Notes under the pieces: generated by a model
Database searches by the model: none
Told to the model about the DNA's origin: nothing
The model's input: the letters and a program-made list of their open reading frames with translations, nothing else
Position numbers and translations under genes: made by a program
Assembly (NCBI GenBank): GCA_963823555.1
Contig: CAWGMA010000002.1
Span: forward strand, 480,001-544,000
Length of the DNA stretch: 64,000 nucleotides
Source: Candidatus Eiseniibacteriota bacterium
GTDB lineage: Bacteria > Eisenbacteria > RBG-16-71-46 > CAVPCR01
Direction of reading: 5' to 3'
Shown: positions 10,842-41,562 of the stretch, piece after piece
Numbering within the stretch: the first letter of the stretch is position 1
Layout: each line of letters starts with the position of its first letter

Positions 10842-12938
10842 TCAAGGGCCTTCGGTCCGGTCCAGGAGCGCCGTGACCCGCTGATTTCGGGGGTTGAGCT
10901 CGCGGGCCTGGAAGAGGAGTGCTCGGGCGTCCGCCACTCGATCCTGCTCGAGCCGCACGCGGGCGAGATCGAAGAGGAGGGTCTCGTCATACGGTCGCAG
11001 GGCGAGTCCGGCTGTGAACTGCGCCTCCGCTTCATCCAGCCTTCCTGCCTGAAGCAGCCAGCGACCGTAGTTGCGCCGCGCCTCCGGAATCTCGGGAGCG
11101 AGCGCCACGGCCCGAGCGAAACCGGTGCCGGCCTCCATATCGCGTCCCAGCTTCATGAAGGCGATCGCCCGGTTCATGTGCCCCATGGGCTCGCGCGGCG
11201 CGATCGTGAGCATTCTCTGATAGTGCTCGAGCGCGTTCGCCGCATCTCCACGGTCCAGGTACTCGCCAGCCGTCTCATCCTCATGGCGAACGGCTCGCTT
11301 GCGGATCGCTTCGCCGCCGGTGGCGGCGAGAAGCAGGACAACCGCGGCGATCAAGACTCGCCGCGCTCTCGGGCTCAGCGCCATCTCCTTGAACTCGAGC
11401 GCGACGAGCCACGCCGGAACGAGTACATAGGGCGCGATCTTGAGCGCATGCAGCATCGGGGTGGCGAGCAGCAGAGGATCGTCGTACTCCGGTAGGAGGA
11501 AGGCGATGGCCGTGGCCCCGGCCATCCCGGCGGCCGCCAGACGGTGCCGCCGGGCGAGGAGTGGCAACAGCATGAGCTGGACTATCGCGTAGTAGCTGAA
11601 CCAAGTCTGGACCAGCCAGCCGGTCGCGGCCAGGAGGAGAAGCGCCCGGCGAGGCAATGCCGTCGCGAAATCAGTGTCGCTGCGTTGCAGGAAGAGCAGA
11701 GCCAGGAAGAACAAGGCCGCAGCTGGCAGCAAGACGAGCAGGGGAGAGCTGTAGATGCCGGCGATCATCAACAGCTGACTGAGACTCACGCTGTTGAGCA
11801 GGTAACCTTTGGTCTGGAACTGGGCGAAGATCTTCTCGGAGAATTCGAGCCACGACCTTCCGCTGAGGAGGGCGAGACTTGCGAGAACAACGACACCTAG
11901 CCCGCACCAGACAAGAAGACGGCACGACCAGCGGGCGGCGGGTGATTCGCCCGGCCTGCGCTTCCGCACCCATGCAGTTCGCAGCAGCCGGCAGCCAGCG
12001 GGGAGGGCGAGGATGAATGGAAAGAGCTTGATGAGCCCGGCCCAGGCGATGGCGACCCCGGCGGCCGGCGCGTGCCGCCGCCGCATGGCGAGCAAGGCCA
12101 TCGCCACCGGCAGCCACATCCCGGCAAAGATGAGCCCGGGCAACGCCCAGCCGACGAAGTCCCACGAGGCAAAGAGCAGGGCGGAGATGGCCAGGCGCCC
12201 GTTCGTGTCCAGACCTAGAGCGAGCCCCGTTGCCCAGGCCATGACAAGCGCCGCGAGGATCTGCCAGCCCAGGTTTAGCCATGCCGTCTCGCGGCCGAAA
12301 GGTCGATGCAGGGTGGGGTCGATCCGGCGCACGAGCGCGTAGAGCGGGGAGCCGTTGAAGCCGTAGTCCCAGGTGATGTTGCGGCCTTCGGCCCTGATGT
12401 TCTCCTCTGCCCTCTCTATGATCAGTGCTCGGTGCACATCACCGCGAAACTCATCGATCTGATCGGCGCGTAGGTTCTCGCGCAGGATTCGCTCGGCCTC
12501 ATCGCGCAGGGCTCCGCTCTCGTCGGCGCGCCGTCTCAACTCCGCCAGCGGAGCGAGCGGGTCGAAATCGCCGCCTCGATCGCGCAGGAGGCCGATGTAG
12601 TAGGCACGCTGAGCACGCGGATCCTCGCGCACGACCGCCGGCGGGTGGTCGAGATCCCGCATCCCGACTTGGGGACGCTCCAGTGAAGCGTTGATCAACT
12701 GGTAGAGACTGCTATACGGGAACGAGTACTTGGCGCCGAGGTAGTAGTGAACGACGTTGATATTGACCAGATTCCTCGGCATGAGGCTGATGGCGAGCGC
12801 GTTGGCGAGGCCGAGGACGAGCAGCGCAAGCCAGGCCAGGCGCGCCAGGCGGGGCCTGGGCCGGAGGGCCAGGAGAGCCCCGCCCGCGGCCATGAGCGCC
12901 GCGCAGACGGCACGGTCATCGAGCGACCAGGCAAGCAT
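10842..12938 (-). CDS. Polytopic membrane protein, GT-C (GT87/DUF2029-like) glycosyltransferase candidate, with C-terminal TPRs
   Basis: Many hydrophobic segments; HYYLGAKY after the N-terminal TMs; IKLFP (KxxP) motif. C-terminal TPR helices (AEAQFTAGLALRP, ARELNP). Confidence 0.6.
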   Translation of the reverse strand: MLAWSLDDRAVCAALMAAGGALLALRPRPRLARLAWLALLVLGLANALAISLMPRNLVNINVVHYYLGAKYSFPYSSLYQLINASLERPQVGMRDLDHPPAVVREDPRAQRAYYIGLLRDRGGDFDPLAPLAELRRRADESGALRDEAERILRENLRADQIDEFRGDVHRALIIERAEENIRAEGRNITWDYGFNGSPLYALVRRIDPTLHRPFGRETAWLNLGWQILAALVMAWATGLALGLDTNGRLAISALLFASWDFVGWALPGLIFAGMWLPVAMALLAMRRRHAPAAGVAIAWAGLIKLFPFILALPAGCRLLRTAWVRKRRPGESPAARWSCRLLVWCGLGVVVLASLALLSGRSWLEFSEKIFAQFQTKGYLLNSVSLSQLLMIAGIYSSPLLVLLPAAALFFLALLFLQRSDTDFATALPRRALLLLAATGWLVQTWFSYYAIVQLMLLPLLARRHRLAAAGMAGATAIAFLLPEYDDPLLLATPMLHALKIAPYVLVPAWLVALEFKEMALSPRARRVLIAAVVLLLAATGGEAIRKRAVRHEDETAGEYLDRGDAANALEHYQRMLTIAPREPMGHMNRAIAFMKLGRDMEAGTGFARAVALAPEIPEARRNYGRWLLQAGRLDEAEAQFTAGLALRPYDETLLFDLARVRLEQDRVADARALLFQARELNPRNQRVTALLDRTEGP

Positions 12939-12968
12939 GTTCGAACCCCCGCGGCGCGGGGCCGGCCG

Positions 12969-15900
12969 TTACTGCGTCCCTCCGGGCTTCGCCGGCGCCT
13001 GGGTCGCGGTCGGCTTGACCTCGGGCGGCTGGGTCAGCGCCTTCCGCGGCTTCTTGACCTCCATGTCGGGTCCGGTGTGGCACTGCACGCAGAGCGTCCG
13101 GGCCTTGCCGTGGGTCAAGAGCTGCGGGATGTCGCCCGAATGCGGGTTGTGACAGGACGAACAGGTGATCGGGTCTCCCGTCCGCGGGTCGAGGTCAGGA
13201 CCCGTGAAGGGATGCGAGTGCTTCTCCGCCGGGTTGTGGCAGGTCGAGCACAGGTTCTCCTGCGAGTCGACGAGGATCCCCTTGGTCTCGCTCCCGTGCG
13301 GGTTGTGGCAGTTGAGGCACTCCGTCATGCCTGGATGCTGCACCTTGCCCGTGAAGAGCTTCCGGTCGTGACAGGAGAGACATGTCTGCTGAACGTCCTC
13401 GCCCGAGAGGAGCTTGGCCGTTCGCGCCACGTGCGGTGAATGGCACGAAACGCACGCCTCCTGGGTCTTGAGCGGGGCATGAACGACCGCCTTCTCGGCG
13501 TCCTTGGCGTGGTCGTCGTGGCAGGCGGCGCAGAGGGCGATGCCCTCGGCCACGAGCCCGGTCTTCCCGGCGTGGCACGACTCGCAGCTCCCTTCGGCGT
13601 AGGGGGCATGCGCGTTGGCGAGCATGAGCCCCTTCTTCCCGGAGCCGTGCGGATCGTGGCACGAGGTGCAGTCGCCGGATCCGGCCTGGTAGCCGCGATG
13701 GGCCGTCGTGAAGGCTGAGGTCTTCGTGTCGTGGCACTTGGCGCAGCCCTCGCGGATCGAGGTGGCGAGGAGCCCCTTCACCGCGCCGACATGGGGTTCG
13801 TGGCAGGTCGTGCACTCGCCCGCGCGCGCCGGCTGATGGGCGTTGGCGCCACTGGCGCGCTCGGTGACATCCTTGTGGCAGTCGGCGCACAGGCCGGGAA
13901 CCGCCTTGGCGAGGAGGCCGGGCATGATGCCGTCGTGCCCGCCATGGCAGGTGCGACACTCGCCATCGCGCACGGGAGAGTGCACGAGATCGGGCTCGGC
14001 GGTCGCCACTTGCGTCACGACATCGCCATGGCAGCCGGCGCAGAGCCCCGGAGTCGCCTCCTTCAGGAGCTTCTCGGTGCCCGTGGCGTGAGCGTTGTGA
14101 CAGCTCGAGCATTCGCCCATCTCGACCGGGGCGTGCAGCGTGCGCCCCGCCGGCTTCTCGATCGCCCCATGGCAGGAGCCGCAGAGCTCCGCCTCGACGG
14201 AGACGAGCTGCGGCTTCATGCCGGCGACCGCTGGCTTGTGGCAGGTCGAGCAATCCCCTTCGGCGAAGGGTGCGTGCTCGGCGAACTGGATGAGGCCGCG
14301 CTTGTCGCTGCGGTGCGGGTCGTGACACCCGGTGCAGGAACCGTCCTCGACCACGAACTCGCGGTGTGCCTTCTTGAGCTCGCCCGAGCTCGGATCGTGG
14401 CAGGAAGAGCACGCCGCCGCGAGGCGGATCTTGCCGTCCGCGTCCTTGGTCTTGTGGCCGTCGTGGCAGGTCAGGCACTGGCCTTGCTTCACCGGTTCAT
14501 GGACCACGCCGACCGCGACGCTGTCGCGCATCGCCGTGTGGCAGGAGAAGCAGAGGTCGGAGCCCGTCTTTTGCAGCAGGCCTTTCGCGCTCTCCGACGC
14601 GTGCGGGCTGTGGCAGGAGCTGCACTGGCCGGCGGCGAGAGGTTCGTGCATCTCCGCCGTGGTCACGTTGGCGGCGACATCGCCATGACAGCTTCCACAG
14701 AGCTCACCTTGATTCGCCGTCAGGAGCTGCTTCTCGGTTCCGGCGTGCGGCAGGTGGCACGTCGCACAGCCCTCGGTGAAGGGTGGATGTTGAGCGGCGA
14801 GCTGTCGCTCATCGAGCTGCGCCGGGTGGCATCCGATGCACATCCGGAGCTCGGTGGTGCGGAGAAGACCGGCGTTGGCCGCCCCGTGGGCGTCGTGGCA
14901 CATGTTGCACTGCCCCGCATAGAAGGGCAGGTGGACGACCGGTTGCTCGAGCTGGGTTGCGACCTCGCCGTGACAGGTGCCGCAGGTCTCATCGAGCGTC
15001 GCCTTCATGAGGAAGGGCTCGCTGCTCGCATGGGCGCCGTGGCAGGCGTCGCAGTCGCCCTCCATGGGCGGGTGCTTGACTGCAGCAGCCGCGACCGCAT
15101 CGGTGACACCGGTGTGGCAGGACCGGCAAAGGGCCTCGACCGGCTGCCGGAGCATGGCTGCGCCACCACCATGGGCGCCGTGGCACTGGTCGCACCGGAA
15201 CTCCTTGAGCGGCGCGTGCACGGAGGTCTGCGCCAGCTGATCCCGGATCCCGCCGTGACAGGCGAGACAGAGCTCCTCGCCGCTCCCGCGCAGGAGCCCT
15301 GGCCGCTCCGCGTTGTGCGGCGAGTGGCACTGGAGGCATTCACCGGCGGCCGCCGGCGGATGCCCTCCCGCCGCCATCGCCACGTCCTTCACGTCCGAGT
15401 GACAGGTGAGGCAGAGCTCCTCGCGTGAAGCGACGAGCGCCTCCGGGTTCGCCGGGAGCCCCGAGTGACAGGTCGCGCACTCGCCCTGGGCGTAGGGCGC
15501 GTGGACATAGGAGCTGCCTTCCTCCGCACTGCCGGCGTGCGGATCGTGGCAGGATGAGCAGGATGCGCCCGCCACTTCAGGTCGAGCATGGAGTTCCGGC
15601 AGCTCCGTCGCTTGACCGTGGCAGCGGGCGCAAATCTCCTTCTCGGGGGCGAGAAGCAGCTTCGGCGGCCGGGGCGTCATGGGGCGCATGGCAGGCGGCG
15701 CAGTTTCCCTCGGCGAAGGGCGGGTGCTGCTTCTCGGCCTTGAGCGCGGCACCGATCTTGGTGTGGCAGGCGGCGCAGGCCTCCGCGGTGCTCGCTCCCC
15801 GCATCAGCCCCTTCACGTCCGAGGCATGCGAGTCGTGGCAGGAGGCGCAGCTCACCCCCTCGATCTCGAGATGCTGGGAGACGGCTCCCGGCGTGGCCAC

Positions 15901-16188
15901 CACGTCGCCATGACAATCGGTGCAGAGCTGGGGGAAGTCCTTCTGCAACGTGAGCTTCTGCTCGAATCCGTGACGCTTGTGGCAGGACTCGCAGTCCTCC
16001 TTCTTCACCGGGTCGTGCACGATCTTCTTGTTGTAGGCCTCGCGGGCATCCTTGTGGCATTCGTAGCAGGGCCGCCCGGCCGCCTGTGCGTCCCGATCCC
16101 CAACCATCAAGAGGAGACCGGCGGCGACGAGTGCCCACAGAATGCACGCGGCTCCGGAACCCACGACGCCACGGGCGCGCGCGATCAT
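12969..16188 (-). CDS. Giant periplasmic multiheme c-type cytochrome, 42 CxxCH motifs (~1070 aa); one frameshift near 15670
   Basis: Signal peptide MIARARG...AQA plus 6 CxxCH in the 15577..16509 frame, then 36 CxxCH in the 12969..15752 frame (hand count). Alternating HxP..G.CxxCHxPH / LL....LCxxCH paired-heme repeats. Confidence 0.93.
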
Positions 16189-16742
16189 CACTTTTCCTCC
16201 TTCGTGACAGTGGGGGGCACGGAGGGGGAGTCCGCCTTGTAACCGTTCACCTCCTTGAGCTGGAAGCTCCAGAAGGAATTCGGGGAGAAGTGGGGCGGGA
16301 AGTTCTGGAATGCCCAGGTCGAATCCACCGCCCCCGAGTCCCCATAGACATAGATGTGTACGGCCGGGTTGTTGAGCGCGCTCGAGGCGCTCAGGAACTG
16401 GCCTTGATCGATGATGAAATCGGGAAGGAAGCGCGTGACCCTGGCGCTGAACTCGGTATCTCCGATGTAGAAGGTCTCGTTCAGGTGAACCCGGTTCTCC
16501 TCGCGCCACTCGGGATAGAGCCGGCTGCCGGTCACGATCGAGAACGTGACGCTCGTATCGACCTCACCCCCGGCCGCGCGCACGGCGTCGGGAGCGGGGA
16601 CCATCGTCGAGTCGGCGAGGATGGCTGTCTCCTCCGCGGCCGGGGCGACCGGTCCGGGAAGCGAGTGGGGTGGGGTTTGCGCTCGCCCGGCCCAGCCCCA
16701 GAGGACGAGGAGCAAGCTCGCGCCGAGGGTCCAGGTCTTCAT
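16188..16742 (-). CDS. Small exported protein (DUF2155/ResB-periplasmic-like)
   Basis: Signal peptide MKTWTLGASLL...GRA; motif RVTRFLPDF...SASSALNNPAV. Its stop overlaps the cytochrome start (GTGATG). Confidence 0.65.
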   Translation of the reverse strand: MKTWTLGASLLLVLWGWAGRAQTPPHSLPGPVAPAAEETAILADSTMVPAPDAVRAAGGEVDTSVTFSIVTGSRLYPEWREENRVHLNETFYIGDTEFSARVTRFLPDFIIDQGQFLSASSALNNPAVHIYVYGDSGAVDSTWAFQNFPPHFSPNSFWSFQLKEVNGYKADSPSVPPTVTKEEK

Positions 16743-16746
16743 GCCT

Positions 16747-17387
16747 TCACTCCGTGCTTCCTGTGGTCTGGGGGGTGGCGCCACGTCCGGCCCCCCCGGT
16801 GGTGGGGAAGGTCTCGAGCATCTCCTGCACGGCGATCGTCGCCATCTGCTCGAGGCTCTGCACGCGGCCGAAACCGAAGACCGACTCGCCATCGCCCCCG
16901 TCACGGCTGTGCACCGCGCTCCACAGCACGCGCCCGCCTGGGGTCTCGAGCAAGCGGAGCGAGAGCGAGATCTGGGGGATCATCTCCCCCTCGAACTGCC
17001 GGGTCGTGTAGCCGGTCAGCGATCCCACCATGATCGCGTTGGCGCCGAGCTCCTGCCCGACCGAGTCCACGAGGTCGGGGAGGCGATCGAGCATGAGCCA
17101 TGGCTCCTTGGCGAGCGCGGCCTGTCCACCTCGCCCTGATCCACGATCTGAACCCCCGGCTTCTGCGCCAGCTCGACCGTCAGGATCGGCAGCACGCGAT
17201 CGGCGGCATCGCGGTTCGAGGTGTAGTTGGCGAGGGGCAGGATGGCGATGCGCCAGGTTCCGGCCAGCGGCTGGGCGATGTAGACCTGTGGTTTGGGCCC
17301 GCATCCCGCCAGCGAGGCGAGAAGGCGAGCTGCGACCACCGCCAGGGCGGCAAGCGAAACTCGATGCGACCGATCGTGCGCTCTCAT
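16747..17387 (-). CDS. Lipoprotein, CsgG/PelC/GNA1162-like alpha/beta fold; frameshift near 17122
   Basis: Lipobox LAGC then RIAILPLANY in the 17016..17933 frame. Continues as ELGANAIMVGSL...ISLSLRLLE...GRVLWS in the 16747..17304 frame. Paralog of the upstream gene. Confidence 0.8.
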
Positions 17388-17388
17388 G

Positions 17389-18000
17389 TCACTGTCCCTG
17401 CGGCAAGGTTGACAGGATATCCCGCGACATGTCCGCGGTGAGCTCGCCCATGGTGTGCACCTCGCCGAAACCGAAGATGGGGAAGCCCGGTCCGCCACGC
17501 CGGGTCCGGCTCCCGGTCCACACGATGCGACCGGATGCGGTGTCCACCAGCCGCACCTCGAGCGAGAGCAGGGGGTAGCTGTCGCGTCCCACTCGCTCCA
17601 TCGTGTAGTCCCGCACCGCGCCCATGAAGACGCCCTGGACTCCCATCTCCTCGCCGAGCCGCGCGAGCTCCTCGCTCGACCAGGGGTTCGTGACCGGAGT
17701 GCCGCCCCGCAGCGCGAACATGGAGGCGACGAGCTGACCCGGTTCGACGACCTGGGCGAACCCCCTGCGCAGGAGCTCCGTGAAGAAGACGTCCGCGACC
17801 TTCTGCCCGGCGAGCTGATCCTGGGCCAGGGAGTTGAACGGGGCAACGGCCACCCGCTCGTAGTAACCGAGATCGGCCTCTTCATCCACGAAGTGGGCGG
17901 GCCCCGCACAGGCGGAGACGAGAAGGGCCACACAGAATACGGCGCCTATCCCCCTCAGCGACTCCACCCGGCGAGCTCTGTCTGTCCTCTTTGTCTTCAT
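17389..18000 (-). CDS. Lipoprotein, CsgG/PelC/GNA1162-like alpha/beta fold
   Basis: Lipobox VSAC; RVAVAPFN, EMGVQGVFMGAVRDY, LSLEVRLVDTASGRIVW. Confidence 0.85.
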   Translation of the reverse strand: MKTKRTDRARRVESLRGIGAVFCVALLVSACAGPAHFVDEEADLGYYERVAVAPFNSLAQDQLAGQKVADVFFTELLRRGFAQVVEPGQLVASMFALRGGTPVTNPWSSEELARLGEEMGVQGVFMGAVRDYTMERVGRDSYPLLSLEVRLVDTASGRIVWTGSRTRRGGPGFPIFGFGEVHTMGELTADMSRDILSTLPQGQ

Positions 18001-18030
18001 ACGTTTCTCGCTTCGTTCGCCCGTTCGAAC

Positions 18031-19685
18031 TCAGAAGTCCTTCTGCAAGTTGGCGGAGTAGTAGCGGCTCCGCGGCCCGTTCTGCTGCTCCACCTGCTGC
18101 GTGCTCAGGAGCACGCGGAACTCACGGGGCAGCCAGAAACCCAGATCGAAACCAAAGAGTCTCTCCTCGCTCTCGAAGGACCGCAAGCGGGAACGCCGGC
18201 GCTCCCAGTTCGCCGCCAGCGTGACCTCGCGCGTGGCGGTCCATGAGGCGTTGAGGCTGGTGACGTTGTCCACGCGGATGACGAGCCCCTCGGCCGTATC
18301 GCGCCGGTGGGACGCCACGAAGCTGAAGTTCTGCGTCGGGTTGTAGCCGAGCAGGAGGTCCCACTGCCGCGTGCCCTGGCGCAGCCCGGCGAAGTCGGGC
18401 TGGGAGAGACGCGTCCAGGTGATGTCGAAGCGCGTCGTGGGTACCGGTACCGTGCGCAGCTGGAGGAGCTGGCGCGACTGATCGCGGCGGATATCGGTGC
18501 TGCTGTCCCGCTGGTAGCTCGCCTCGGCCCGACCGGCCATGCCGCGGAGGATGGGTCCGTCCAGCATGGCATAGACCGAGTTGGTCGGGATCCCGGCTCG
18601 GTTCTCCGAGCTGTCCTTGATCCGCTCCGTCCTCCGGAAGCCGGCCAGGAGCTCGACGCGCCGCCAGACCTGGTCACGGAATGTCGTCTCGAAGCGCAGG
18701 TAGTCGGCGATCAGGCGCCCTTGCACCTCGTTCGTCTGCCGGTAGTCGCGGGCCAGCTGGAAGGTGAGCGGCACGATCGGCTGGTACTGGACGCCGGCGC
18801 TCAGGAAGGTCTCATCGGTATCGATGGGCAGGGGGAAGGCGTTGTCATCGGTGGACTGCCAGCGCTGGAGGGCGGTTCCGAAGAGGGAGACCGAGCGCGC
18901 GGGACGCCAGTTGAGGGCCGCATTGATGCGATGGGCCTCGAGATCGCGGCGTCGCTCGCGGGCGCTGAAGTCGCTCAAGAGGACATCGTAGTCGGCGCTC
19001 AGACTCACTCGCCTGATCGTCGGTCCGGCCCCGGACTCCGGCGCGCAGCTCCTCGGTGACCTGATCGACGCCGTTGGGCCGCCGGTCATCCGCGTCGATG
19101 CGCCGGAGGCCCACGAATCCGCCCACGTCGTCGGTGCCATAGGAGAGTTCCGCGCGACGGTCGTCGTTGGCCGAGGGGCCGAGGCCGATCTCGCGCTCGC
19201 GGTGCTGCCATTCGGCAAAGAGGTTGGGAAGATTGCGGGGCGTGACCCGGACATTGATGTAACCGAAACGCTCCTTGGCCGGGTCGGGGCCCGGCGACAC
19301 CTCTTGCCACGGTGTGAACTGACCTTCGAGGCGCCAGGTCTGGGCGATCAGCTCCCCCTGGAATCGGTAGCGGAAGACATCGCCGTCACTCACTCCCAGC
19401 TCGCTCAGGTAGCGCAGGAACGCGCGCAGCCTGAGGTCGAGCCCGGCCGGGGGTCGTGCCCCGCGTCCACATGTCGAGCTGATGCTGCATGGTGTCGATG
19501 GTCTGATCGCCGAAGATCGTCGTGCCCGTGAGATCGTTGCGTGTGATGGACCCGATGTAGCGACCGTCGATCTCCATCCCCCTGGCGGGCAGCGCGACCA
19601 TCGCGACCAGCGAGGAGCAGGCGCAGATCACGAGCGGGATCGCGATCTTCCTTCCCGGTGCGCTCCATCGCCGGCCTGGCATCAT
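18031..19685 (-). CDS. Outer-membrane beta-barrel protein (~550 aa); frameshifts near 19450 and 19020
   Basis: Signal peptide (...AMVALPARG). Amphipathic beta-strand pattern across three joined frames; C-terminal YYSANLQKDF ends in Phe. Confidence 0.8.
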
Positions 19686-19689
19686 GGGA

Positions 19690-20871
19690 TCAGTACCCGA
19701 TCTCGATCCCGCCCGGTTCACCCGAGGCCGGCCGGTGGACGTTGAACCCGGTGGCGCTCGAATAGTCGCGGCCGTGGCAGTCGTGGCAGCCCTGGGTCGC
19801 CGAGGCTCTGTGTGCGCCTCCTGGTCCGAGATCGCGTTCATGACGATGCCCTCGACCGTCTCCGAGTCCCGGGATGCCGTCCGCCGGGATGTGGCAGCCG
19901 AAGCAGAAGCGGCGGTTCTGCTCGGCATCGCCAGGGTGTCGGTGAGGCCGCTCCAGCCGACGACGCTGATCGCTGATCAGGAAGGCGTTGGGCTGCGACC
20001 CGATTGTTGCCCTTCGGAACCGTGCGGGTTGTGGCAGTCGTAGCAGGGCAGCTTGTCGCCGACCTGGATGTGCGGCCGGCCAGGAGAGGGCGACGTTGGA
20101 GTTGCGACGGATCTGGTGGCCGGCCGACGCTCGCCGTTCAGCCCGCTGTCGTAGTAGTCCTCGATGTAGCGGTTCTCGGTGATCCATCCCGGACGGACCG
20201 TCGGCGCCGTGGCAGGAGAAGCAGAGGCCGTAGCTCGCCGGTGGCGCCCGATCCCGGCGTGGCCGCTGATCCCGCCATAGAGGGCGACCAGGATGTCGCG
20301 CGGGTTCTCGGTGCCGTGCGGGTCGTGGCAGTTGAGGCAGAGGCCCTGCCCGGCCGCGTCCTGGCGCGGCATGTCGGGATCGTGTGGCGTGCGGGGAGAT
20401 CGTAGTGGCCGGCGGCGGTGACCCGCGGGTCGGTGTAGACGACCTCTCCCGGCCAGCGTCCCCGGAACTCGACGCCCGCGCGCCGGATGCCGCCCGCGTT
20501 GGCCTCGAAGTAGCCGGCATCGGGCTCGGTGTCCGGCATGCGGTCGATCTCGCCGAGCGGGTAGTTCGTGGGCCGGGACTGGTGACAGGGGCGGGCGCCG
20601 TCGGCCCAGAAGGCCAGGCGGTTGGTCGTTCTCGGTGAAGAGGTTGCTGGCCGAGGGGGACGCGCCGGCATCAGCCTCGTGGAACGCGTGGCACTGCGTG
20701 CACTCGCCGCGCGTGGGCGATTCGGTCACCTCGCGGAGGACACCGGTGGCGGGATCCCCGTGCGGATCATGGAGGAGTTCCTGTGCCAGTGACCCAGGCG
20801 GTCAATCCCAGGACCGCCGTGAGGACCATGCCGGAAGTGGTCTCACCGGTCGCTTTCATCGGCCGAAGCAT
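19690..20871 (-). CDS. Exported multiheme cytochrome c (6 canonical CxxCH plus one degenerate site); multiple frameshifts
   Basis: RBS GAGGGA and ATG 20871, hydrophobic leader, then HDPHGDPATGVLR...GECTQCH. CLNCH, CFSCH, CYDCH, CFGCH and CHDCH follow, spread over several frames. Confidence 0.75.
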
Positions 20872-20977
20872 GTCCCTCGTGGATGTCCTCGGCGACTGCG
20901 ACGATCGCAGGAATGCCACGAGATCAGGTCCGGGCGCCGACCATGGCCGGAGTGTCGGCGCCCGGTCCGAGGACGGG

Positions 20978-21004
20978 GAGCCCGGAGCGCTACCGCCCGG
21001 GCTC
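20978..21004 (-). terminator. Stem-loop immediately 3' of the OmcS-like gene
   Basis: GAGCCCGG-A-GCG-CTAC-CGC-CCGGGCTC inverted repeat 17 nt downstream of the stop. No U-tract. Confidence 0.5.
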
Positions 21005-21021
21005 GTCGACGTCAGGCCGAT

Positions 21022-22130
21022 CTACCAGGGATCGCGGTCGCCACCCTGGCGGTGGCACTGGCGGCAGCTGTTGCGAGCGTCGAGCGCCGTCGTCGCCCTG
21101 CTCCGTCACCGTTCCGGTCCCGACCATGTAGATCAGGCCGAACGCGTTCTGGTTGCCGTGCGACTTGTGGCACGACATGCAGGACGGGGTGAGCTCGGTG
21201 TCGGTGCCGTCGTAGCCGGTGGCCGAGCCGTAGGGCTTCGGCTTCTGGCCGGTCGGCGACATCACCTGAACCTGGTTGCCCTTGGCCGACGAGCGGTGGC
21301 GAGCGAGGAGTGCCCGCCGCCAGCGGCGCCGATGTTGACACCACCGGACGGGTGACGGACGAACTCCTCCGCCGGAGCGCCGATGCCGCCGATCTCGGGA
21401 CCGCCCACGTCACCGTGGAAGTTGGTGTGGCAGTTCTTGCAGCACGTTGGCGTAGGCCGACTTGCTCTGGTCAGGCTCGTTGAACGTGATGGCCCCGACG
21501 CCGTAGTGGTTGGCGTTGGTGCCACCCGAGACGTCCTCGTAGACCCAGGCGCCGAGGTCGTTCGCAGCCTCGACGTCACCGCGGGTGTAGCTGATGCTGG
21601 TGGACGTCCCGCCATCCACGAACAGGTTCCGGTAGCCGCCCTGGGCCGCATGGCTCCGGTCGAGCCGCGGCGTCCGACCGTGAACGGAGTGGCAGTTGGC
21701 GCAGTTCAGGCCATCCGGGTTGGCGAAGGTGCCGCCGGGAGCGATCGTCCGTCGAGCCGAGCGTGTGCCCGGTGGGCGGCGGATACAGGCCGTTCCCGCC
21801 GACCTCGTTCAAGGCGCCCGCCTGCCGGACGTAGCCGTTGCTGTGCGCTTCGAAGACGTCCGGAGCGAACGCCTGCCCGTCGTGACAGCCGAGGCAGAGA
21901 TCGTTGATGTCGTTCCGGAGCAGGTAGTGGTACGGGCCGTCGGCGCAATGGGACCATAGTTGCCCGTGCCGTTCGGGTTGTAGCCGTGCGACTGGCTGTA
22001 GTGCATGACATGGCAGTCCTGAGCAGATCAGGCCGACCCCGAAATGGTAGTCGCCGGCGAAGCCGACGGCGGCGAATGCCACCATGGCCAGCCCGACTCC
22101 CATCGCGGTCAAGAGACGCTTTAGGTTCAC
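21022..22130 (-). CDS. OmcS-like hexaheme outer-surface cytochrome (~370 aa); multiple frameshifts
   Basis: RBS AGGAGGT, GTG 22130, signal peptide. Reconstructed: GDYHFGVGLIC(S/Q)DCHVMHYS...YLL...LCLGCH...GHTLG..APGGTF...LNCANCHSVH...GGYRNL...CKNCHTNFH...RHP...CMSCHKSHG...CRQCHRQG...W-stop. Confidence 0.8.
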
Positions 22131-22165
22131 GTGAACACCTCCTGGTGGAGAAACCCGTCCCACCC

Positions 22166-23225
22166 TCAGGGCTCGGCCGTCGCCGAGTCCTCCGGATTGG
22201 ACGGAAGGCCAGAGAGTTCCAGGTTGATGACCTGACAGCGGGCACCAGCCCGTTCCAGGACCACCAGCTGGTCCTCGGCCAGAAATGCGCAAGCGGCCGG
22301 GTAGTAGAACTCGCCGGGTCCCTCGCCATAGCCCCCGATGCGCCCGCGATACCCGCCCCGGGAATCGAAGATGCTGATCGAGTGCCGGATCGTATCGGTG
22401 ACCCAGAGGGTGCTCTCCGGGCCATAGACGGCGTGGACCGCCATCGAGAACGTGCCGTCGCCGTCGCCGTGCTCTCCGAACTGGGCGAGGAGCGAGCCAC
22501 CGATCGTGTAGACCGAGATCTGGTACTTGGCCTTGGGGTCGGTGATCGCGATCTCGGTTTCGTCCGGGTTCACGGCAATGGCGATGGGGCCGATCCAGGC
22601 GCCGGTGTCCGTCTCGGGGAAGCCGAGCTGCCCCACGAAACTTCCATCGTGCTCCAGGATCATGACGCCCGAGCGAGCGCCCGAGCAAAGGAGGTAGATG
22701 CGACCGCTCCTGCCGATCGCGATGGCCGAGGGCCTGGTCTGGCCCTCGAGCTCGGCAGGAAGAGCGGGGTGCAGGATGCCGAGATGCGAGCCGCGGGGGC
22801 TCAGGACCTCGACATCGGCATTGGTGGCATCGACGACGAACATGCGGCCGCGGCGATCCAGGGCGAAGGAGGCGGGGTCGACGATGCCGCCCGACGCGTC
22901 CCATGGGGTCGTAGCGCACGGCGCCGCGCGAGCGCCCCGTCTCGTCGAAGGTGACGATGCGGCTGTTTCCGGTGTCGGAGACGAGGAAGACCCCCCGCGC
23001 CGAGTCGGCGGCGATGCCGCGGGGCCGGCGGAAGACGTCCAGGGCCGAGGGGCCGTAGAAGATGGTCTCGACGGAGCGGATGGAGGGGGCAGCAGAAGAA
23101 GCCTCATCGCCAAGCGCGCCATGCGCGGGGGCGGTGAGGCTCAAGATCGCGAGGAGGGCTCCCAGCGGGAGAAGGAGGCTCTTCGACGCGCGGTGACCCA
23201 AGTCTGCGTTTCCCCTGCCAATCAA
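22166..23225 (-). CDS. NHL-repeat beta-propeller protein, exported; frameshift near 22905; start uncertain
   Basis: FRRPRGIAAD...VSDTGNSRIVTFD, QFGEHGDGDGTF, WVTDTIRHSISIFD, IGGYGEGPGEFYYP. Hydrophobic leader LLLPLGALLAILSLTAPAHG. Confidence 0.85.
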
Positions 23226-23307
23226 AGGTGCAAAGCTCGTTCAACGCAGGAGGCGGGATAGGGAGATACCTGCCTGCATGGCGGCCGAGCGTCTGGAGGG
23301 GGGGCAG

Positions 23308-23324
23308 AGCAACTGCCGGGCCAT
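23308..23324 (-). promoter_or_regulatory. Sigma-54 (RpoN) -24/-12 promoter for the cytochrome operon
   Basis: Minus strand reads ATGGCCCGGCAGTTGCT, i.e. TGGC-N7-TTGC with exact GG-N10-GC spacing, about 80 nt upstream of the first gene. Confidence 0.7.
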
Positions 23325-23348
23325 TCGCCATTTCTGCAAAATCCGATA

Positions 23349-23361
23349 TATCAATCATTTA
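23349..23361. promoter_or_regulatory. IHF-like binding site
   Basis: TATCAATCATTTA matches WATCAANNNNTTR exactly. It lies in an AT-rich patch just upstream of the sigma-54 -24 element. Confidence 0.6.
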
Positions 23362-27920: not shown

Positions 27921-28814
27921 ATGCGCCCCATGCTTGGCTCCCGGTCCCGCCGAGTCGTCATGATCCTCGTCCTCCTCCTCGCCACCTGCTCCGTGGCGTG
28001 GGCGGAGGGGGATGCGGCCGACGAACCAGCCGTCCCGGAAACCCGCTGGTTCGCCACCGAGCGGCTCAACATCTTCATCCCCTTCGTCATCTTCACCGGG
28101 CTCGTGGGTTCCTTCATCGCGCTCGCCCGACGCGGCTCCCAGCTCTTCGTGCGCCGCATCGCCGGGCTCGACGCCATCGACGAGGCCATCGGCCGCGCCA
28201 CCGAGATGGGTCGTCCCATCCTCTACTCACCCGGCCTCGACGAGATGGATCAGCCGGGCACCGTGGCCTCGATCAATATCCTGGGCCAGGTCGCCGAGAA
28301 GGCGGCCACGTATGACTCGCGTGTCACCGTGCTCAACCGCGACCCGATCGTGATGAGTGTCGCCCAGGACGTGGTCAGGAGCGGCTACCTGCGCGCCGGA
28401 CGCCCCGACCTCTTCCGTGAGGAGGATGTCTTCTACGTCACCTATAGCCAGTTCGGGTATGCAGCGGGGGTGGCCGGCTTCATGGTGCGCGAGCGGCCCG
28501 CAGCCAACTTCTTCCTCGGCCGTTTCTATGCCGAGTCGCTGGTGATGGCCGAGACCGGACAGACCACGGGCGCCATCCAGATCGCGGGCACCGACTCCGA
28601 TGCCCAGCTCCCCTTCTTCATCACCGCCTGTGACTACACGCTGATCGGGGAGGAGCTCTACGCCGCCTCGGTCTATCTGGCGCGGGAACCGCTGCTCCTC
28701 GGGAGCCTGAAGGCCCAGGACATGGCCAAGCTCCTGATCATCGTCTTCATCGTGCTGGGTGTGGTCGGCGGGTTCCTGGGCGTGTCCCTCGACTTCTGGA
28801 CGGCCGCCGGATAG
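27921..28814 (+). CDS. DUF6754-like membrane protein (module copy 1, gene A)
   Basis: RRIAGLDAIDEAIGRATEMGRPIL...FYAESL..AETG...GAIQIAGT...QLPFF..ACDYTLIGEELYAAS.YL. Clear paralog of 41563..42837. Confidence 0.85.
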   Translation: MRPMLGSRSRRVVMILVLLLATCSVAWAEGDAADEPAVPETRWFATERLNIFIPFVIFTGLVGSFIALARRGSQLFVRRIAGLDAIDEAIGRATEMGRPILYSPGLDEMDQPGTVASINILGQVAEKAATYDSRVTVLNRDPIVMSVAQDVVRSGYLRAGRPDLFREEDVFYVTYSQFGYAAGVAGFMVRERPAANFFLGRFYAESLVMAETGQTTGAIQIAGTDSDAQLPFFITACDYTLIGEELYAASVYLAREPLLLGSLKAQDMAKLLIIVFIVLGVVGGFLGVSLDFWTAAG

Positions 28815-28830
28815 GGGAGGGCGAGGACGC

Positions 28831-29490
28831 ATGCTCCAGCGCACCGGACCCCTGGTCTTCGCCATCGTCTTCGGCGTCTTCATGGCGCTCCAGTACTTCA
28901 TCCCGCACCCCGCGATCGTCCGCTTCTACAACCTGGTCCTCGACTGGAAGCAGGTCGTCTTCGGCTGCACGCTCACCCTCGGCATCTTCAGCCTCCTCCG
29001 CTTCCATGGCCGCAAGGTGGCGCGCCGGGACCGCGGCGCCTTCTTCAGCGGGGTCGCCCTGGTGTCGTGCCTGGCCACGGTCGCCTGCGGCATCTTCTTC
29101 GGCATCGAGACCGGACCCTATCGCTGGCTCTTCGATCGCGTGCAGGCCCCGATGCAGGCGACCCTGTTCTCGATGCTCGCCTTCTTCGTCGCCTCCGCTT
29201 CCTATCGGGCCTTTCGCGCCCGCTCGGTCCACGCCACGCTGCTCCTCGTGGCCGGCTGCATCGTGATGCTGGGACGGGTGCCGACGGGTGATCTCATCGG
29301 CTTCGACGTGGGCGGGGCGCGCTACTCGCTCGCCGGGCTCGCGAGCTGGCTCCTCGACATTCCGAATCTTGCGGCAAAGCGCGGAATCCTGATCGGGGTC
29401 GGCCTCGGCATGATCTCGACCTCGCTCCGCATCATCCTCGGCATCGAGCGCGCGTACCTCGGACAGTCGCGCCAGCAAGGTGGATCATGA
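28831..29490 (+). CDS. Conserved polytopic membrane protein (module copy 1, gene B)
   Basis: ATLFSMLAFFVASASYRAFR and W..DIPNLAAKRGILIGVGLG...ILGIER. Paralog of 40898..41521. Confidence 0.85.
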   Translation: MLQRTGPLVFAIVFGVFMALQYFIPHPAIVRFYNLVLDWKQVVFGCTLTLGIFSLLRFHGRKVARRDRGAFFSGVALVSCLATVACGIFFGIETGPYRWLFDRVQAPMQATLFSMLAFFVASASYRAFRARSVHATLLLVAGCIVMLGRVPTGDLIGFDVGGARYSLAGLASWLLDIPNLAAKRGILIGVGLGMISTSLRIILGIERAYLGQSRQQGGS

Positions 29491-30377
29491 ACGGCGGCGG
29501 CAGAGAGCACGGCTGGGTCGAGCGCCTGGTGGCCTTCGATCGCCGCTGGATCTATCTCTTGATGGCGATCGCGGTCGCCTTGCCCATGCTCTTGCCGCTC
29601 AAGCTCCCGATCGTGGTCTCGAAGGAGGTCGCGGCCTTTCATCGCGAGATCGAGGCCTTGCAGCCTGGGGACGAGGCGTTGCTCTCGATCGACTATGAGC
29701 CCGATGTCATGGCCGAGCTCGATCCCATGACCGAAGCCGTTCTCGACCGCCTGTTCGCCAAGGGCGTCAAGGTCATCTGCATGACCAACTACGCGGGTGG
29801 AGTCGGGGTCGCCCAGCGCCAGCTCGAGGCGGCGGCCACACGTTATGGCAAGGTCGACGGCACCGATTATGTCTTCCTCGGTTACAACCCGGACTGGTCG
29901 GGCACCATGCTCCGTCTGGGGGAGAGCATCCGCGCCACCTTTCCGGTCGATCAGTTCGGGCACCCGACCAAGGACCTTCCGGTGCTGGCGGCGTGCAATG
30001 CCTACAAGGACATCGAGCTCCTGGTCTCGATCTCGGGGAGCGCGCTCTCCGAATACTGGGCGGCCTACGCCGGGGCGCGCTACGGGCAGCGCATGGTGTC
30101 GGGGAACACGGCGATCCAGGCCATCTTCATCTATCCCTTCTTCCAGTCCGGACAGATCAAGGGTTTCCTCGGCGGGCTCAAGGGGGCGGCGGAGTACGAG
30201 ACCTTGATCGAGCGCCCGGCCTTCGGTGTCCGCGGCATGGGCTCGCAGTCGGCGGGGCACATCCTCATCGTCGCCGCCGTCATCCTCGGCAATGTCGGCT
30301 ACTTCGCCATGCGGAAGCGGGGCACCGCGACGAGCGGCAACCGTCTCAAGAGCCTCGATCCGGAGGGCCGCTCATGA
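29487..30377 (+). CDS. Conserved membrane-anchored protein (module copy 1, gene C)
   Basis: DRRWIY, IDYEP..AELDPM, DYVFLGY, YPFFQSGQI.G.LGGLKGAAEYE. Paralog of 40016..40876. Confidence 0.85.
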   Translation: MNGGGREHGWVERLVAFDRRWIYLLMAIAVALPMLLPLKLPIVVSKEVAAFHREIEALQPGDEALLSIDYEPDVMAELDPMTEAVLDRLFAKGVKVICMTNYAGGVGVAQRQLEAAATRYGKVDGTDYVFLGYNPDWSGTMLRLGESIRATFPVDQFGHPTKDLPVLAACNAYKDIELLVSISGSALSEYWAAYAGARYGQRMVSGNTAIQAIFIYPFFQSGQIKGFLGGLKGAAEYETLIERPAFGVRGMGSQSAGHILIVAAVILGNVGYFAMRKRGTATSGNRLKSLDPEGRS

Positions 30378-39375: not shown

Positions 39376-40011
39376 CTAGAACAGCTTGCCGGTGAGGATC
39401 GTCACGTAGTCCTTGAGGAAGATGACGCGCTGGACGAGGAGAGCGACACGGCCCATCACCGTGAGACCGAACCCGGCGCCGAAGCCGACCATCAGCGTGT
39501 AGATGCCGACCCGCGACGCGGTGCCGAGAAGTCCGGTGTGGTGCTTGGAGAAGAAGAAGTAGGAGAGCGAGCAGACGAGACCGACCAGGGCGAGGAAGAA
39601 GTTGAGCCCGCCGAGCGACGCCGTCACCGGGCGGATGGTGCCCTCGACCTGCAGGAAGACTCCGGTCTTGAAGGCCAGCGGGATGAAAACACCGGTCGAG
39701 ATCCCGATGTAGAAAGCGAGCGCGTACCGGGAGAGCCAGCCCTGGCGCGGCGAGAGACGGAACCACATGAGCACGCCGAGGGCCACCGGGATCAGATAAT
39801 GCCACTGGTGATGCTGGGCGATGGGCACCCACACCTTGTCCCAGAAGCTGGTCCAGAAGAGCAGCATCGTCCAGTAGCCGGTGGTGATGCCGACCCATAG
39901 CCGCTCCACGAACTTGTAGATCGGGTTGTCGCCGATCAGGAACGAGAAGATGGCGAGCGTGACGAAGGCGGCCAGCGTCTGCCAGGCGAGAACGTCCCAG
40001 GTCGGTTCCAT
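39376..40011 (-). CDS. Conserved polytopic membrane protein (module copy 2, gene D)
   Basis: TLAIFSFLIGDNP.YKFVE.L.VG..TGY and GFGAGFGLTVMGR..LL. Confidence 0.85.
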   Translation of the reverse strand: MEPTWDVLAWQTLAAFVTLAIFSFLIGDNPIYKFVERLWVGITTGYWTMLLFWTSFWDKVWVPIAQHHQWHYLIPVALGVLMWFRLSPRQGWLSRYALAFYIGISTGVFIPLAFKTGVFLQVEGTIRPVTASLGGLNFFLALVGLVCSLSYFFFSKHHTGLLGTASRVGIYTLMVGFGAGFGLTVMGRVALLVQRVIFLKDYVTILTGKLF

Positions 40012-40015
40012 ATTC

Positions 40016-40876
40016 CTACCTCGCCCCCATGGCGCGCTTGCGCGCCCGCCGCTGCGCCACGTAGGCGATGTTGGTGAGCACCATGAACACGATGATCACG
40101 AGGTGGGTCGTCATCTGGTAGGGCATCCCGCGCGAGCCCTGGCCACGGTGTCCGGTGAGCATCTCGTACTCGGCGGCACCCTTCATGCCCGGGATGAGCC
40201 CGAAGATCTGCCCGGACTGGAGATAGGGGTAGTAATCGGAGGCCATGACGCCCGTCACCCCGAGGGCGACGGGGACCCCGTACTTGGCGTTGCCATAGGT
40301 GATCCACATGTCGGCGACGTTGCCGCCGGCGAGCGAGACCACCCCCTTCACGTTCCGGTAGTTGTGGATGTCCTCCATCATGGGGATCGAGTCGACCGGC
40401 GTGCCGTAGTAGTCGGTGGGGAACGGCACGCGGAAGTCGGTGCCCATGGCGAGGATGGTGATCGCCGGGTAGGGCTTGTAGCCGAGGAAGGCGTAGTCGA
40501 TGTTGCGCTCTTTGCCCTCGTCCGTGGCCACGCGCACGATCAGCTCCTCGGCCATCGCCGGTCCGAACTGCGAGAGCGCCGTGATGACCACGCGCGCCCC
40601 CCGCTGGAAGGCCTGGCGGAGGATGGCCTCCGCCATCGGGTGGAGCTCGGCGAGCGTCGAGGGGTCGTAGTCGATGGCGAGGAAGAGGTTGTCTCCCGGC
40701 TCGAGCGCCTCCACGAACTCGTAGACGTCCCGGACCTCGCTCGAGATGCCGGTCGGAACGCTGAAGCGCAGCACCGCCGGGAGGAGAACGGCGACCCCCA
40801 GGATGAAGTAGATCCAGCGGCGATCCACCACCAGCATCTTGTCGTACCAGCGAGAAGTCTCGGGGCGCGCTTCCAT
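40016..40876 (-). CDS. Conserved membrane-anchored protein (module copy 2, gene C)
   Basis: DRRWIY, IDYDP..AELHPM, DYAFLGY, YPYLQSGQI.G...GMKGAAEYE. Confidence 0.85.
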   Translation of the reverse strand: MEARPETSRWYDKMLVVDRRWIYFILGVAVLLPAVLRFSVPTGISSEVRDVYEFVEALEPGDNLFLAIDYDPSTLAELHPMAEAILRQAFQRGARVVITALSQFGPAMAEELIVRVATDEGKERNIDYAFLGYKPYPAITILAMGTDFRVPFPTDYYGTPVDSIPMMEDIHNYRNVKGVVSLAGGNVADMWITYGNAKYGVPVALGVTGVMASDYYPYLQSGQIFGLIPGMKGAAEYEMLTGHRGQGSRGMPYQMTTHLVIIVFMVLTNIAYVAQRRARKRAMGAR

Positions 40877-40897
40877 CGGGTTCTACTCCTCCACCAC

Positions 40898-41521
40898 CTA
40901 GTCCCGGCCCATGTAGGAGCTCTCGATGCCGAGCAGGATCTTCATGCTGTAGCTGATGGCGCCCAGAGCGACACCGATGATGATGGCGCGTTTAGCGGCC
41001 ATGTTGGGTACGGCGAGGATCCAGCGCACCACTTCCGAGTTCCAGGTCGAGAGCGGCTCCGGCAGCGGGATCAGCCGCAGCATGACCACGAAGGCGGTCA
41101 ACAACAAGATCGCGGCGAGCACGGTGCGCACGCGGAATGCCCGGTAGGCGGCGCTCGCGATGTAGAAGGCGAGCATCGAGAACAGGGTGGCCTGCGCCGG
41201 GACCAGGACCCACTGGAAGAGGTTCATGAAGAGCGTGCCCGACTCGAAGCTCTCGCGCCGGAGCCCGGTCACGACCATGACCAGGAAACCGATGATGGTG
41301 GTCGCCGAGTAGAACCGCTCCTTGCGATCGTGCTGCGCCTTGTTCCAGGTGTTGCGGAGGAGCGAGAAGATGCCGATCGGGAGGGCCAGGATACCGATCA
41401 CGATCACGAAATCGTTGGCGTAGGTGAACAGGAACTCCGAGAACGGGTGCGGCACGAAGTACTGGATCACCATGATCAGGCCGGCGACGAAGACGAGGAA
41501 CAGCGGAATCTGCCTCTTCAT
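40898..41521 (-). CDS. Conserved polytopic membrane protein (module copy 2, gene B)
   Basis: ATLFSMLAFYIASAAYRAFR and W..AVPNMAAKRAIIIGVALG...LLGIE. Confidence 0.85.
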   Translation of the reverse strand: MKRQIPLFLVFVAGLIMVIQYFVPHPFSEFLFTYANDFVIVIGILALPIGIFSLLRNTWNKAQHDRKERFYSATTIIGFLVMVVTGLRRESFESGTLFMNLFQWVLVPAQATLFSMLAFYIASAAYRAFRVRTVLAAILLLTAFVVMLRLIPLPEPLSTWNSEVVRWILAVPNMAAKRAIIIGVALGAISYSMKILLGIESSYMGRD

Positions 41522-41562
41522 CGCTCATGCATCCTGGTTGAGCCCATTGTTGCTCCGAGTCG

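Follow-up and report, generated by a model that had tools for sequence, protein, structure and literature searches.

The question raised by this locus is whether a multiheme cytochrome operon from outside Geobacter belongs to the same class of machines as the OmcS system of Geobacter sulfurreducens and its osc companions, and whether it is intact. The operon lies in a 64,000-nucleotide stretch of Candidatus Eiseniibacteriota DNA (assembly GCA_963823555.1, contig CAWGMA010000002.1, positions 480,001 to 544,000 of the forward strand; hereafter, the window). There, an earlier note, made from the letters alone, had described nine minus-strand genes split by breaks in their reading frames: an NHL propeller, two hexaheme cytochromes (here A and B), a barrel, two lipoproteins, a small exported protein, a 42-heme cytochrome and a GT-C/TPR membrane protein. 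This order is seen directly, and the first eight genes recur unbroken and in the same order, with 6, 6 and 42 hemes, in G001, a Candidatus Eisenbacteria genome of the same genus that was recovered by a search of 40 relatives (67% match to the NHL gene). Judged by homology and gene order, the operon is a variant of the published osc system, homologous to the omcS-osc cluster of Geobacter and rearranged relative to it, because its barrel, both lipoproteins and the 42-heme protein match the block found beside canonical OmcS genes. The kinship that the earlier note proposed is borne out by profile, fold and profile-profile comparisons, the last with canonical loci, and so is its placement of the operon outside Geobacter: given that G001 belongs to Ca. 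Eisenbacteria, the window does not derive from Desulfobacterota.

Six-frame translation of the window yields 53 intact CxxCH motifs; every one is on the minus strand, within 13091-21896, and the rest of the window has none. The 54th, the first motif of hexaheme A, is disrupted by a frameshift near 22019 and is recovered in the frameshift-aware alignment, so that the total of 54 given earlier, split 42 + 6 + 6, is reached with one motif repaired. Among the 387 CxxCH motifs of the source genome, likewise counted in six frames, the operon forms one of the two densest clusters. The window proteins share 54-71% identity with those of G001 (frameshift-aware alignment), whose lengths, from NHL to the 42-heme protein, are 358, 366, 384, 539, 209, 201, 197 and 1078 amino acids (aa). 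The eight genes are as follows, with osc labels assigned by position (PMC13194489, PMC12977616); among the G. sulfurreducens proteins, OmcS alone was compared directly.

22166..23225, minus strand: NHL-repeat beta-propeller with a signal peptide, corresponding to the NHL gene that precedes omcS-type genes in canonical loci (the G001 orthologue has a Pfam NHL match; one frameshift near 22886)
21022..22130, minus strand: hexaheme A, a divergent OmcS-family cytochrome and predicted filament subunit (profile, fold and ligand histidines; six frameshifts)
19690..20846, minus strand: hexaheme B, of a separate family with 6-7 hemes, a likely cap or adaptor (conserved histidines and fusions; about 15 frameshifts)
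18031..19685, minus strand: outer-membrane beta-barrel in the OscE position (homology to the canonical barrel; two frameshifts)
17389..18000, minus strand: lipoprotein 1, PelC/CsgG/LpoB-like, in the OscF position (invariant lipobox cysteine; intact)
16747..17387, minus strand: lipoprotein 2, a paralogue of lipoprotein 1 (hhalign; one frameshift near 17119)
16188..16742, minus strand: small exported protein, a stand-alone domain related to part of ResB of system II cytochrome c maturation (profile; intact)
12969..16188, minus strand: 42-heme cytochrome with a signal peptide, in the OscI and OscJ positions (colinear fusion of 26-heme and 16-heme proteins; one frameshift near 15663)

The homology of hexaheme A to OmcS is reached by three routes, namely, profile search, predicted fold and profile-profile comparison. 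A single-sequence search of the PDB (phmmer) returned no OmcS match. The homologue search recovered 923 proteins, and the profile made from the query and 109 of the 120 homologues listed (the 11 omitted being mostly of partial coverage) finds OmcS, 6EF8, as its best PDB match at E 1.5e-7, with no other match better than 0.1. An AlphaFold (AF2) model, built without hemes (predicted local distance difference test, pLDDT, 81; residues 21-42 at low confidence), has 6EF8 as its single Foldseek match (E 8e-4, probability 0.97) and superposes on OmcS in VIA-align with Z 12.9 and a root-mean-square deviation of 3.9 over 262 aligned residues at 20% identity. Finally, profile-profile comparison with 21 canonical OmcS-like proteins gives probabilities of 99.7-99.95%, and the global profile alignment to such proteins brings all six CxxCH motifs and six non-motif histidines into register. 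These histidines (H28, H42, H121, H149, H262 and H321) are invariant in 110 of 110 sequences, and His42 aligns with His16 of mature OmcS, which we take to be the trans ligand of heme 5. The CxxCHxxH arrangement at the first motif is kept in 105 of the 109 six-motif representatives. In OmcS, all 12 axial ligands are reported to be histidines, that of heme 5 being supplied by the neighbouring subunit (PMC6584659). As canonical query we used the hexaheme of locus L138, which matches OmcS end to end (E 5e-131) and retrieves canonical OmcS-like proteins from 14 of the 401 genomes of the phylum of genome G041. Small genomes of that phylum also encode OmcS-related hexahemes of two more groups, which fall between hexaheme A and the canonical proteins (L140, L141, L142, L143, L144, L145 and L146).

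The companion genes tell the same story of homology with rearrangement. Nine canonical loci have the order hexaheme, propeller, barrel, lipoprotein, lipoprotein, SurA/PpiC-like protein, 26-heme, 16-heme and NHL, which fits the eight-gene block GSU2500-2493 reported from G. sulfurreducens, with its 26-heme protein GSU2495 (PMC12977616). In that system, OscE, OscF and OscG have been proposed to act in secretion and OscH in folding, and OscD has been connected with filament morphology (PMC13194489). The NHL family profile matches the NHL genes of the canonical loci at E ~1e-19 to 1e-35. The barrel, for which no Pfam match was found, pairs with the canonical barrel in hhalign (probability 97%, E 8.7e-11), and its profile matches seven of the nine canonical barrels; its Atlas neighbours include outer-membrane barrel clusters, at a recognition value under the tool's threshold that makes this a lead. 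Lipoprotein 1 matches canonical F (hhalign, 99.9%) and, as a profile against the PDB, 5T11 and 5T10 (E 2e-9 to 6e-9), PelC 9H80 (E 8e-6) and also 5T0Z; Pfam CsgG and LpoB are each detected in 15 of the 47 members of its family. For lipoprotein 2, hhalign gives 99.9% with canonical F and 99.8% with canonical G, over the C-terminal half of the latter. The 42-heme protein is colinear with two canonical cytochromes, its residues 33-650 covering the 26-heme protein and residues 662-1039 the 16-heme one, each at 100% probability (hhalign).

The small exported protein is the odd member of the set, occupying the place that the SurA-like chaperone has in canonical loci. Its profile, with an invariant Pro-His, matches the two ResB proteins of the source genome at the level of the domain (E 3e-9 and 9e-9); Pfam searches with 33 members gave no match, ResB included, and neither did the PDB. 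It is not a full-length ResB with membrane segments, and there is no ccsA in the operon. Profile-profile comparison with canonical D, E, F, G and H gave no match, which speaks against its being a fragment detached from one of them.

How widespread this arrangement is can be gauged from a scan of species genomes that confirmed 210 relatives; all counts over 80 loci given here refer to the best 80 of these 210, many of which end at contig ends or at the 10 kb flank and which, being kin, are not independent. The labelled loci among them come from Eisenbacteria, Krumholzibacteria, Zixibacteria, Ignavibacteria, Gemmatimonadota, Latescibacterota, Glassbacteria, Armatimonadota, Acidobacteriota, Planctomycetota and others. 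Hexaheme B is encoded in 48 of the 80 loci, the small gene in 34, a 41-42-heme fusion in 26 (25 with exactly 42) and a SurA-like gene in 6. All 26 loci with the fusion have the small gene and none has the SurA-like chaperone, and in none of the 80 do the small gene and the chaperone occur together. Hexaheme A itself is found in 62 of the 201 genomes of the window's class (42 of 121 at high quality), so this subfamily is common in its class. Among 50%-identity representatives, its profile picks up 195 clusters with E-values of 1e-30 or better.

Hexaheme B is a different matter. The comparison in the earlier note set both hexahemes beside OmcS-type ones, which holds for A and fails for B: the profile match of B to OmcS is weak and partial (E 9.5e-4), and B is a separate family and not a second OmcS. 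A single-sequence PDB search with B found no OmcS match, and a half-confident model (pLDDT 64) gave no confident fold match. Members of this family have eight conserved non-motif histidines for seven heme sites, the seventh site being of CX8CH type in 37 of 48 members (one of its cysteines is lost in G001 and the window), and one of the eight histidines stands at the CxxCHxxH position of the first motif (46 of 48). Eleven of the genes in the 80 loci encode twelve hemes; in four, a hexaheme-A-family module directly precedes B, and in seven, B is followed by a C-terminal multiheme extension. The A-B fusions are those of L045, L065, L072 and L081, together with P0263, a protein of 1879 aa in which the A-family and B modules are followed by further hemes (24 CxxCH in total) and a long heme-free C-terminal part. 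The docking histidine is kept in L045 and P0263, the two fusion sequences inspected, and loci with an A-B fusion also keep a separate hexaheme A gene. We infer from these sequences that hexaheme B may attach to an A-type subunit at its heme-5 end, terminate the chain and carry variable extensions. In L016, L017, L018, L020, L021, L022, L093, L097 and L103, a nine-heme cytochrome of about 500 aa stands in place of hexaheme B after hexaheme A; because this replacement occurs in otherwise identical fused-type operons, it suggests that the slot is an exchangeable module.

The gene content, homologies, ligand conservation, fusions and distribution are the established part of our explanation, and upon them a route for electrons can be proposed. 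Quinol-oxidising cytochromes encoded elsewhere in the genome would feed electrons to the 42-heme protein, acting as a periplasmic wire. The hemes would be attached by the ResB/CcsA system of the genome, aided by the small ResB-like domain in lieu of the SurA-like chaperone. The beta-barrel and the two PelC/CsgG-like lipoproteins, presumably as rings, would secrete and hold the filament, in which hexaheme A would polymerise as OmcS does, with His42 ligating heme 5 of the next subunit. Hexaheme B, finally, would act as a cap or adaptor, using its own spare N-terminal histidine to dock on an open heme-5 end and so terminate the chain. On balance, it seems likely, if by no means assured, that the operon exports electrons through such a predicted head-to-tail cytochrome filament, in the manner of omcS-osc.

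Alternatively, the same parts could make up a short, fixed conduit across the envelope, similar to porin-cytochrome complexes, in which the periplasmic 42-heme protein meets one or a few copies of hexaheme A and a single hexaheme B at the barrel, and through which electrons could flow outward or inward. The single copy of each hexaheme gene and the natural A-B fusions would suit such a 1:1 unit, and some Geobacter genomes are reported to pair the eight-gene block with only a GSU2501-type hexaheme, for which polymerisation is unknown (PMC12977616). Against this, the separate hexaheme A gene retained beside the fusion suits a shaft plus a cap, the ring lipoproteins resemble proteins of polymer export, and the invariant His42 has no internal partner by the OmcS structure. 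Thus, we regard the fixed conduit as unlikely, albeit with enough weight to be kept in mind.

Several observations do count against the filament, or against too close an equation with omcS-osc, and some of them favour the conduit. Hexaheme A contains two further near-invariant histidines, His47 and His241, either of which could fill heme 5 internally, and because of them the ligand count alone is no proof of polymerisation. It shares just 16-20% of its residues with OmcS, and its model reaches a Foldseek TM-score of just 0.42. A quick tree (66 rows, made up of 33 hexaheme A sequences chosen one per locus, 20 canonical proteins and 13 others; midpoint drawing, OmcS itself not a row) places it in a clade of its own, apart from the canonical OmcS-like proteins, with other hexahemes between them (Shimodaira-Hasegawa-like approximate likelihood ratio test, SH-aLRT, 96 and 99). 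By these sequence comparisons, hexaheme A is a deep-branching relative of OmcS and not its authentic orthologue, and among the four paralogues of G. sulfurreducens, OmcS alone is reported as a known wire (PMC12977616). The 42-heme protein has 42 conserved non-motif histidines and therefore needs no partner ligand, which rules out that it has an open end ligated by hexaheme A. Neither the operon of the window nor that of G001 contains the propeller of the OscD position, which would lie between hexaheme and barrel, or the final NHL gene. The OscH-position chaperone is likewise missing from the operon, with only generic SurA/PpiC genes elsewhere in the genome; the lack of the propeller and the chaperone, like the extra histidines of hexaheme A, would fit a fixed conduit.

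Beyond the predicted filament, a broader proposal, which we make tentatively and hold to be doubtful, is that Eisenbacteria, Krumholzibacteria, Zixibacteria, Ignavibacteria, Gemmatimonadota and further phyla, most of them uncultured, possess a second, streamlined nanowire machine. In it, a deep-branching OmcS subfamily would form polymers that start at one 42-heme trunk in the periplasm, a dedicated ResB-like domain would replace the SurA-like chaperone, and an exchangeable hexaheme B tip with variable extensions, akin to the tip of a pilus, would dock by the same bond from histidine to heme 5.

All of this presupposes that the window encodes a working operon, and its reading frames are broken. 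Frameshift-aware alignment to G001 locates 26 breaks of the single-base type and no in-frame stop: 1 in NHL, 6 in hexaheme A, 15 in hexaheme B (one or two of those in the signal peptide being less sure), 2 in the barrel, 1 in lipoprotein 2 and 1 in the 42-heme gene; a codon model blind to G001 recovers 14 of the 26. The breaks are very probably errors of the assembly consensus in a working operon, because contigs from relatives restore six of them and many such patches exist in the assembly. Specifically, short-read contigs of relatives have indels of compensating sign at 22022, 21945, 21746, 21442, 20834 and 20788, each within 3 nucleotides of a predicted break; in the other 6 of the 12 indel rows listed (of 59), two form a compensating pair missed among the predicted breaks, three sum to one codon and one is intergenic. 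Genome-wide, the codon model marks 38 of 1851 bins with at least 8 switches, some gene overlaps being counted too, versus 6 in the worst bin of the operon. One of these 38 dense patches holds the only COX1-family gene found, which is broken into 8 pieces by frameshifts (source genome G000, contig C1, 552981-554217). Moreover, the first 8.3 kb of this contig (1-8348) repeats the end of contig C3 (843900-852211) at 90% identity with 224 gap letters, and hemB and hemL within the segment are intact in C3 and broken in C1; this duplicated segment is likely a mixed-strain or low-depth consensus.

It might be argued, instead, that the system is real in relatives and that the window copy has recently been inactivated by true frameshifts concentrated in the two surface cytochromes. 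Indeed, 21 of the 26 breaks fall in the two hexaheme genes, most of them outside homopolymer runs, and the operon has 26 breaks in ~3,450 aa versus 9 in ~62,400 aa elsewhere, i.e., a density some 50 times higher, although the latter figure comes from a coarser method (of 139 genes outside the operon that were set against G001, 9 had a frame change). The contigs that restore the frames belong to relatives at 90-100% identity and not to the source itself, and no sequencing run was found to contain half or more of the words of the stretch (four DNA runs share 8-15%, and no RNA run was found), so that direct re-polishing is precluded. An inactivated operon, however, sits poorly with the lack of any nonsense codon and with the retention of all 214 conserved columns (116 of 116 in hexaheme A and 98 of 98 in hexaheme B, where the family medians lose 2 and 1), and the ratio of nonsynonymous to synonymous substitution, at 0.34 for A and 0.30 for B, is within the operon range of 0.25-0.60. 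Where the genes for the 42-heme protein, the barrel and lipoprotein 2 are broken, near-identical short pieces, with 0-4 other letters, align across the break with gaps (the positions of the gaps are not given), and the same single-base, insertion-leaning damage affects dozens of unrelated patches and the duplicated contig end. Recent inactivation is thus improbable, and the suspicion of the earlier note that the indels are errors appears sound.

Two features lie at the margins of the eight-gene core:

23309..23323, minus strand: candidate sigma-54 (-24/-12) promoter, ~85 nucleotides upstream of the first gene (motif in the window and G001)
10842..12938, minus strand: optional multi-pass membrane protein with C-terminal TPRs, GT87/GT-C-like as a lead (intact; outside the conserved core)

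Of 25 related loci, 10 have a 9-of-11 match to the sigma-54 consensus ahead of the NHL gene, versus 1.0 expected in shuffles; rpoN is present in the source genome, and a sigma-54 promoter likely drives the operon. Scans for sigma-70 promoters and terminators returned nothing above chance. The GT-C/TPR gene, by contrast with the core, does not keep the membership that the earlier note gave it: a clear homologue stands beside a related cluster in 1 of the 80 loci, none of 40 relatives has one at E 1e-25, and G001 has a peroxiredoxin directly after the 42-heme gene and no GT-C/TPR gene at that place. The single instance (L069:12493-14550, 558 bits) likewise comes directly after a cluster of this type, in a locus labelled Zixiibacteriota whose gene order differs. 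Pfam detects the TPRs alone in this protein, and its Atlas neighbours, at 0.98-0.99, include one cluster with GT87 on 13% of members. Given that OmcS and OmcE filaments are reported to be glycosylated (PMC9473688), a role in filament glycosylation is possible by analogy.

Nor is the system self-contained, as had been supposed: genes for maturation and quinol oxidation are found outside the operon, and it can do without the GT-C/TPR gene. The search of the genome for such functions, which the earlier note had called for, was productive: there are four CcsA/CcmC-type genes and three ResB loci, and a second electron-transfer region (contig C4, 287400-302000), also present in G001 and with breaks in both genomes when compared. 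On one strand, this region encodes ccsA-resB, 4-heme and 14-heme cytochromes and a probable barrel, and on the other, a 9-heme lipoprotein-like protein, a NapC/NirT-like protein and two cytochrome-b-fused multihemes. A further protein, of 1000 aa, fuses a cytochrome b/b6 domain to nine c-type hemes (C4, 98719-101721) and is a candidate quinol oxidase; as far as their sequences indicate, the NapC-like and cytochrome-b-fused multihemes could link to the quinone pool.

In the flanks of the operon, Pfam identifies the FlgD-Ig C-termini and the C25 peptidase that the earlier note had named. The FlgD-Ig tail is common to many exported proteins of the source genome, among them a six-heme cytochrome with an Ig domain and such a C-terminal tail (C1, 989805-992657). 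Elsewhere in the window, two cassettes of 3-4 membrane-protein genes on opposite strands (27921-30377, plus; 39376-42837, minus) look by eye to be paralogous, the former starting with a DUF6754 protein.

What is new here has to be stated with care. The osc machinery is reportedly widespread and ancient, going by the title of Shen et al. 2025 (Cell Chem Biol 32:239). OmcS homologues outside Geobacter have been described (PMC10954620, PMC12954529), an OmcS gene was noted in a Krumholzibacteria metagenome-assembled genome in 2020 (bioRxiv 10.1101/2020.09.22.307553), and iron-cycling genes have been attributed to Eisenbacteria and Zixibacteria, among other taxa (PMC8478452). Thus, the lineage is indeed outside Geobacter, but the novelty claimed for it was overstated, all the more as hexaheme A is so frequent in its class. 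Our searches for Eisenbacteria together with multiheme cytochromes, extracellular electron transfer or OmcS found no paper naming Eisenbacteria, and no published description of the fused 42-heme/ResB-like form was found, although the main text and supplements of Shen et al. 2025 may cover it. The concept being published, the gain is one of range and architecture and not of principle. If the reading holds, OmcS-type wiring would be common in abundant uncultured lineages of sediment, soil and groundwater, where single-sequence OmcS searches miss it. The fused, chaperone-less form would point to the barrel, two lipoproteins, 42 hemes and NHL protein as the essential osc parts, and the A-B fusions suggest a way in which such filaments are capped or ended. 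The unbroken eight-gene operon of G001, at ~10 kb, offers a compact unit for expression and cryo-electron microscopy.

Four known systems bear comparison. With OmcS itself (6EF8/6NEF), hexaheme A shares six CxxCH motifs in three paired units, the six aligned ligand histidines and, in the predicted model, the same overall fold; it differs in its mature length of ~340 residues versus 407, in large loop differences and extra conserved histidines, and in escaping single-sequence search, and the wire is known for OmcS and predicted for hexaheme A. The omcS-osc cluster (GSU2504-GSU2493), compared by way of the nine canonical loci, has in common with the present operon the NHL protein, an OmcS-family hexaheme, the barrel, two paralogous lipoproteins and 26 + 16 hemes, all in the same order. 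Here, however, one fused protein combines the 26 and the 16 hemes; there is no propeller following the hexaheme, no SurA-like chaperone and no NHL gene at the end; the ResB-like domain and the separate 6-7-heme family are added; the barrel measures ~540 aa versus ~730 and lipoprotein 2 ~200 aa versus ~380; and the hexaheme, at 16-20% identity to OmcS, belongs to another clade. Porin-cytochrome conduits of the MtrCAB type likewise place an outer-membrane barrel beside periplasmic and surface multihemes with doubled CxxCH units, whereas the barrel here matches the OscE position and is accompanied by ring-type lipoproteins, an OmcS-fold hexaheme and a 42-heme periplasmic partner. The PelC/CsgG outer-membrane ring lipoproteins, finally, are matched by lipoprotein 1 in profile and Pfam searches, but here two paralogues stand in a cytochrome operon, and their ring form is predicted by likeness.

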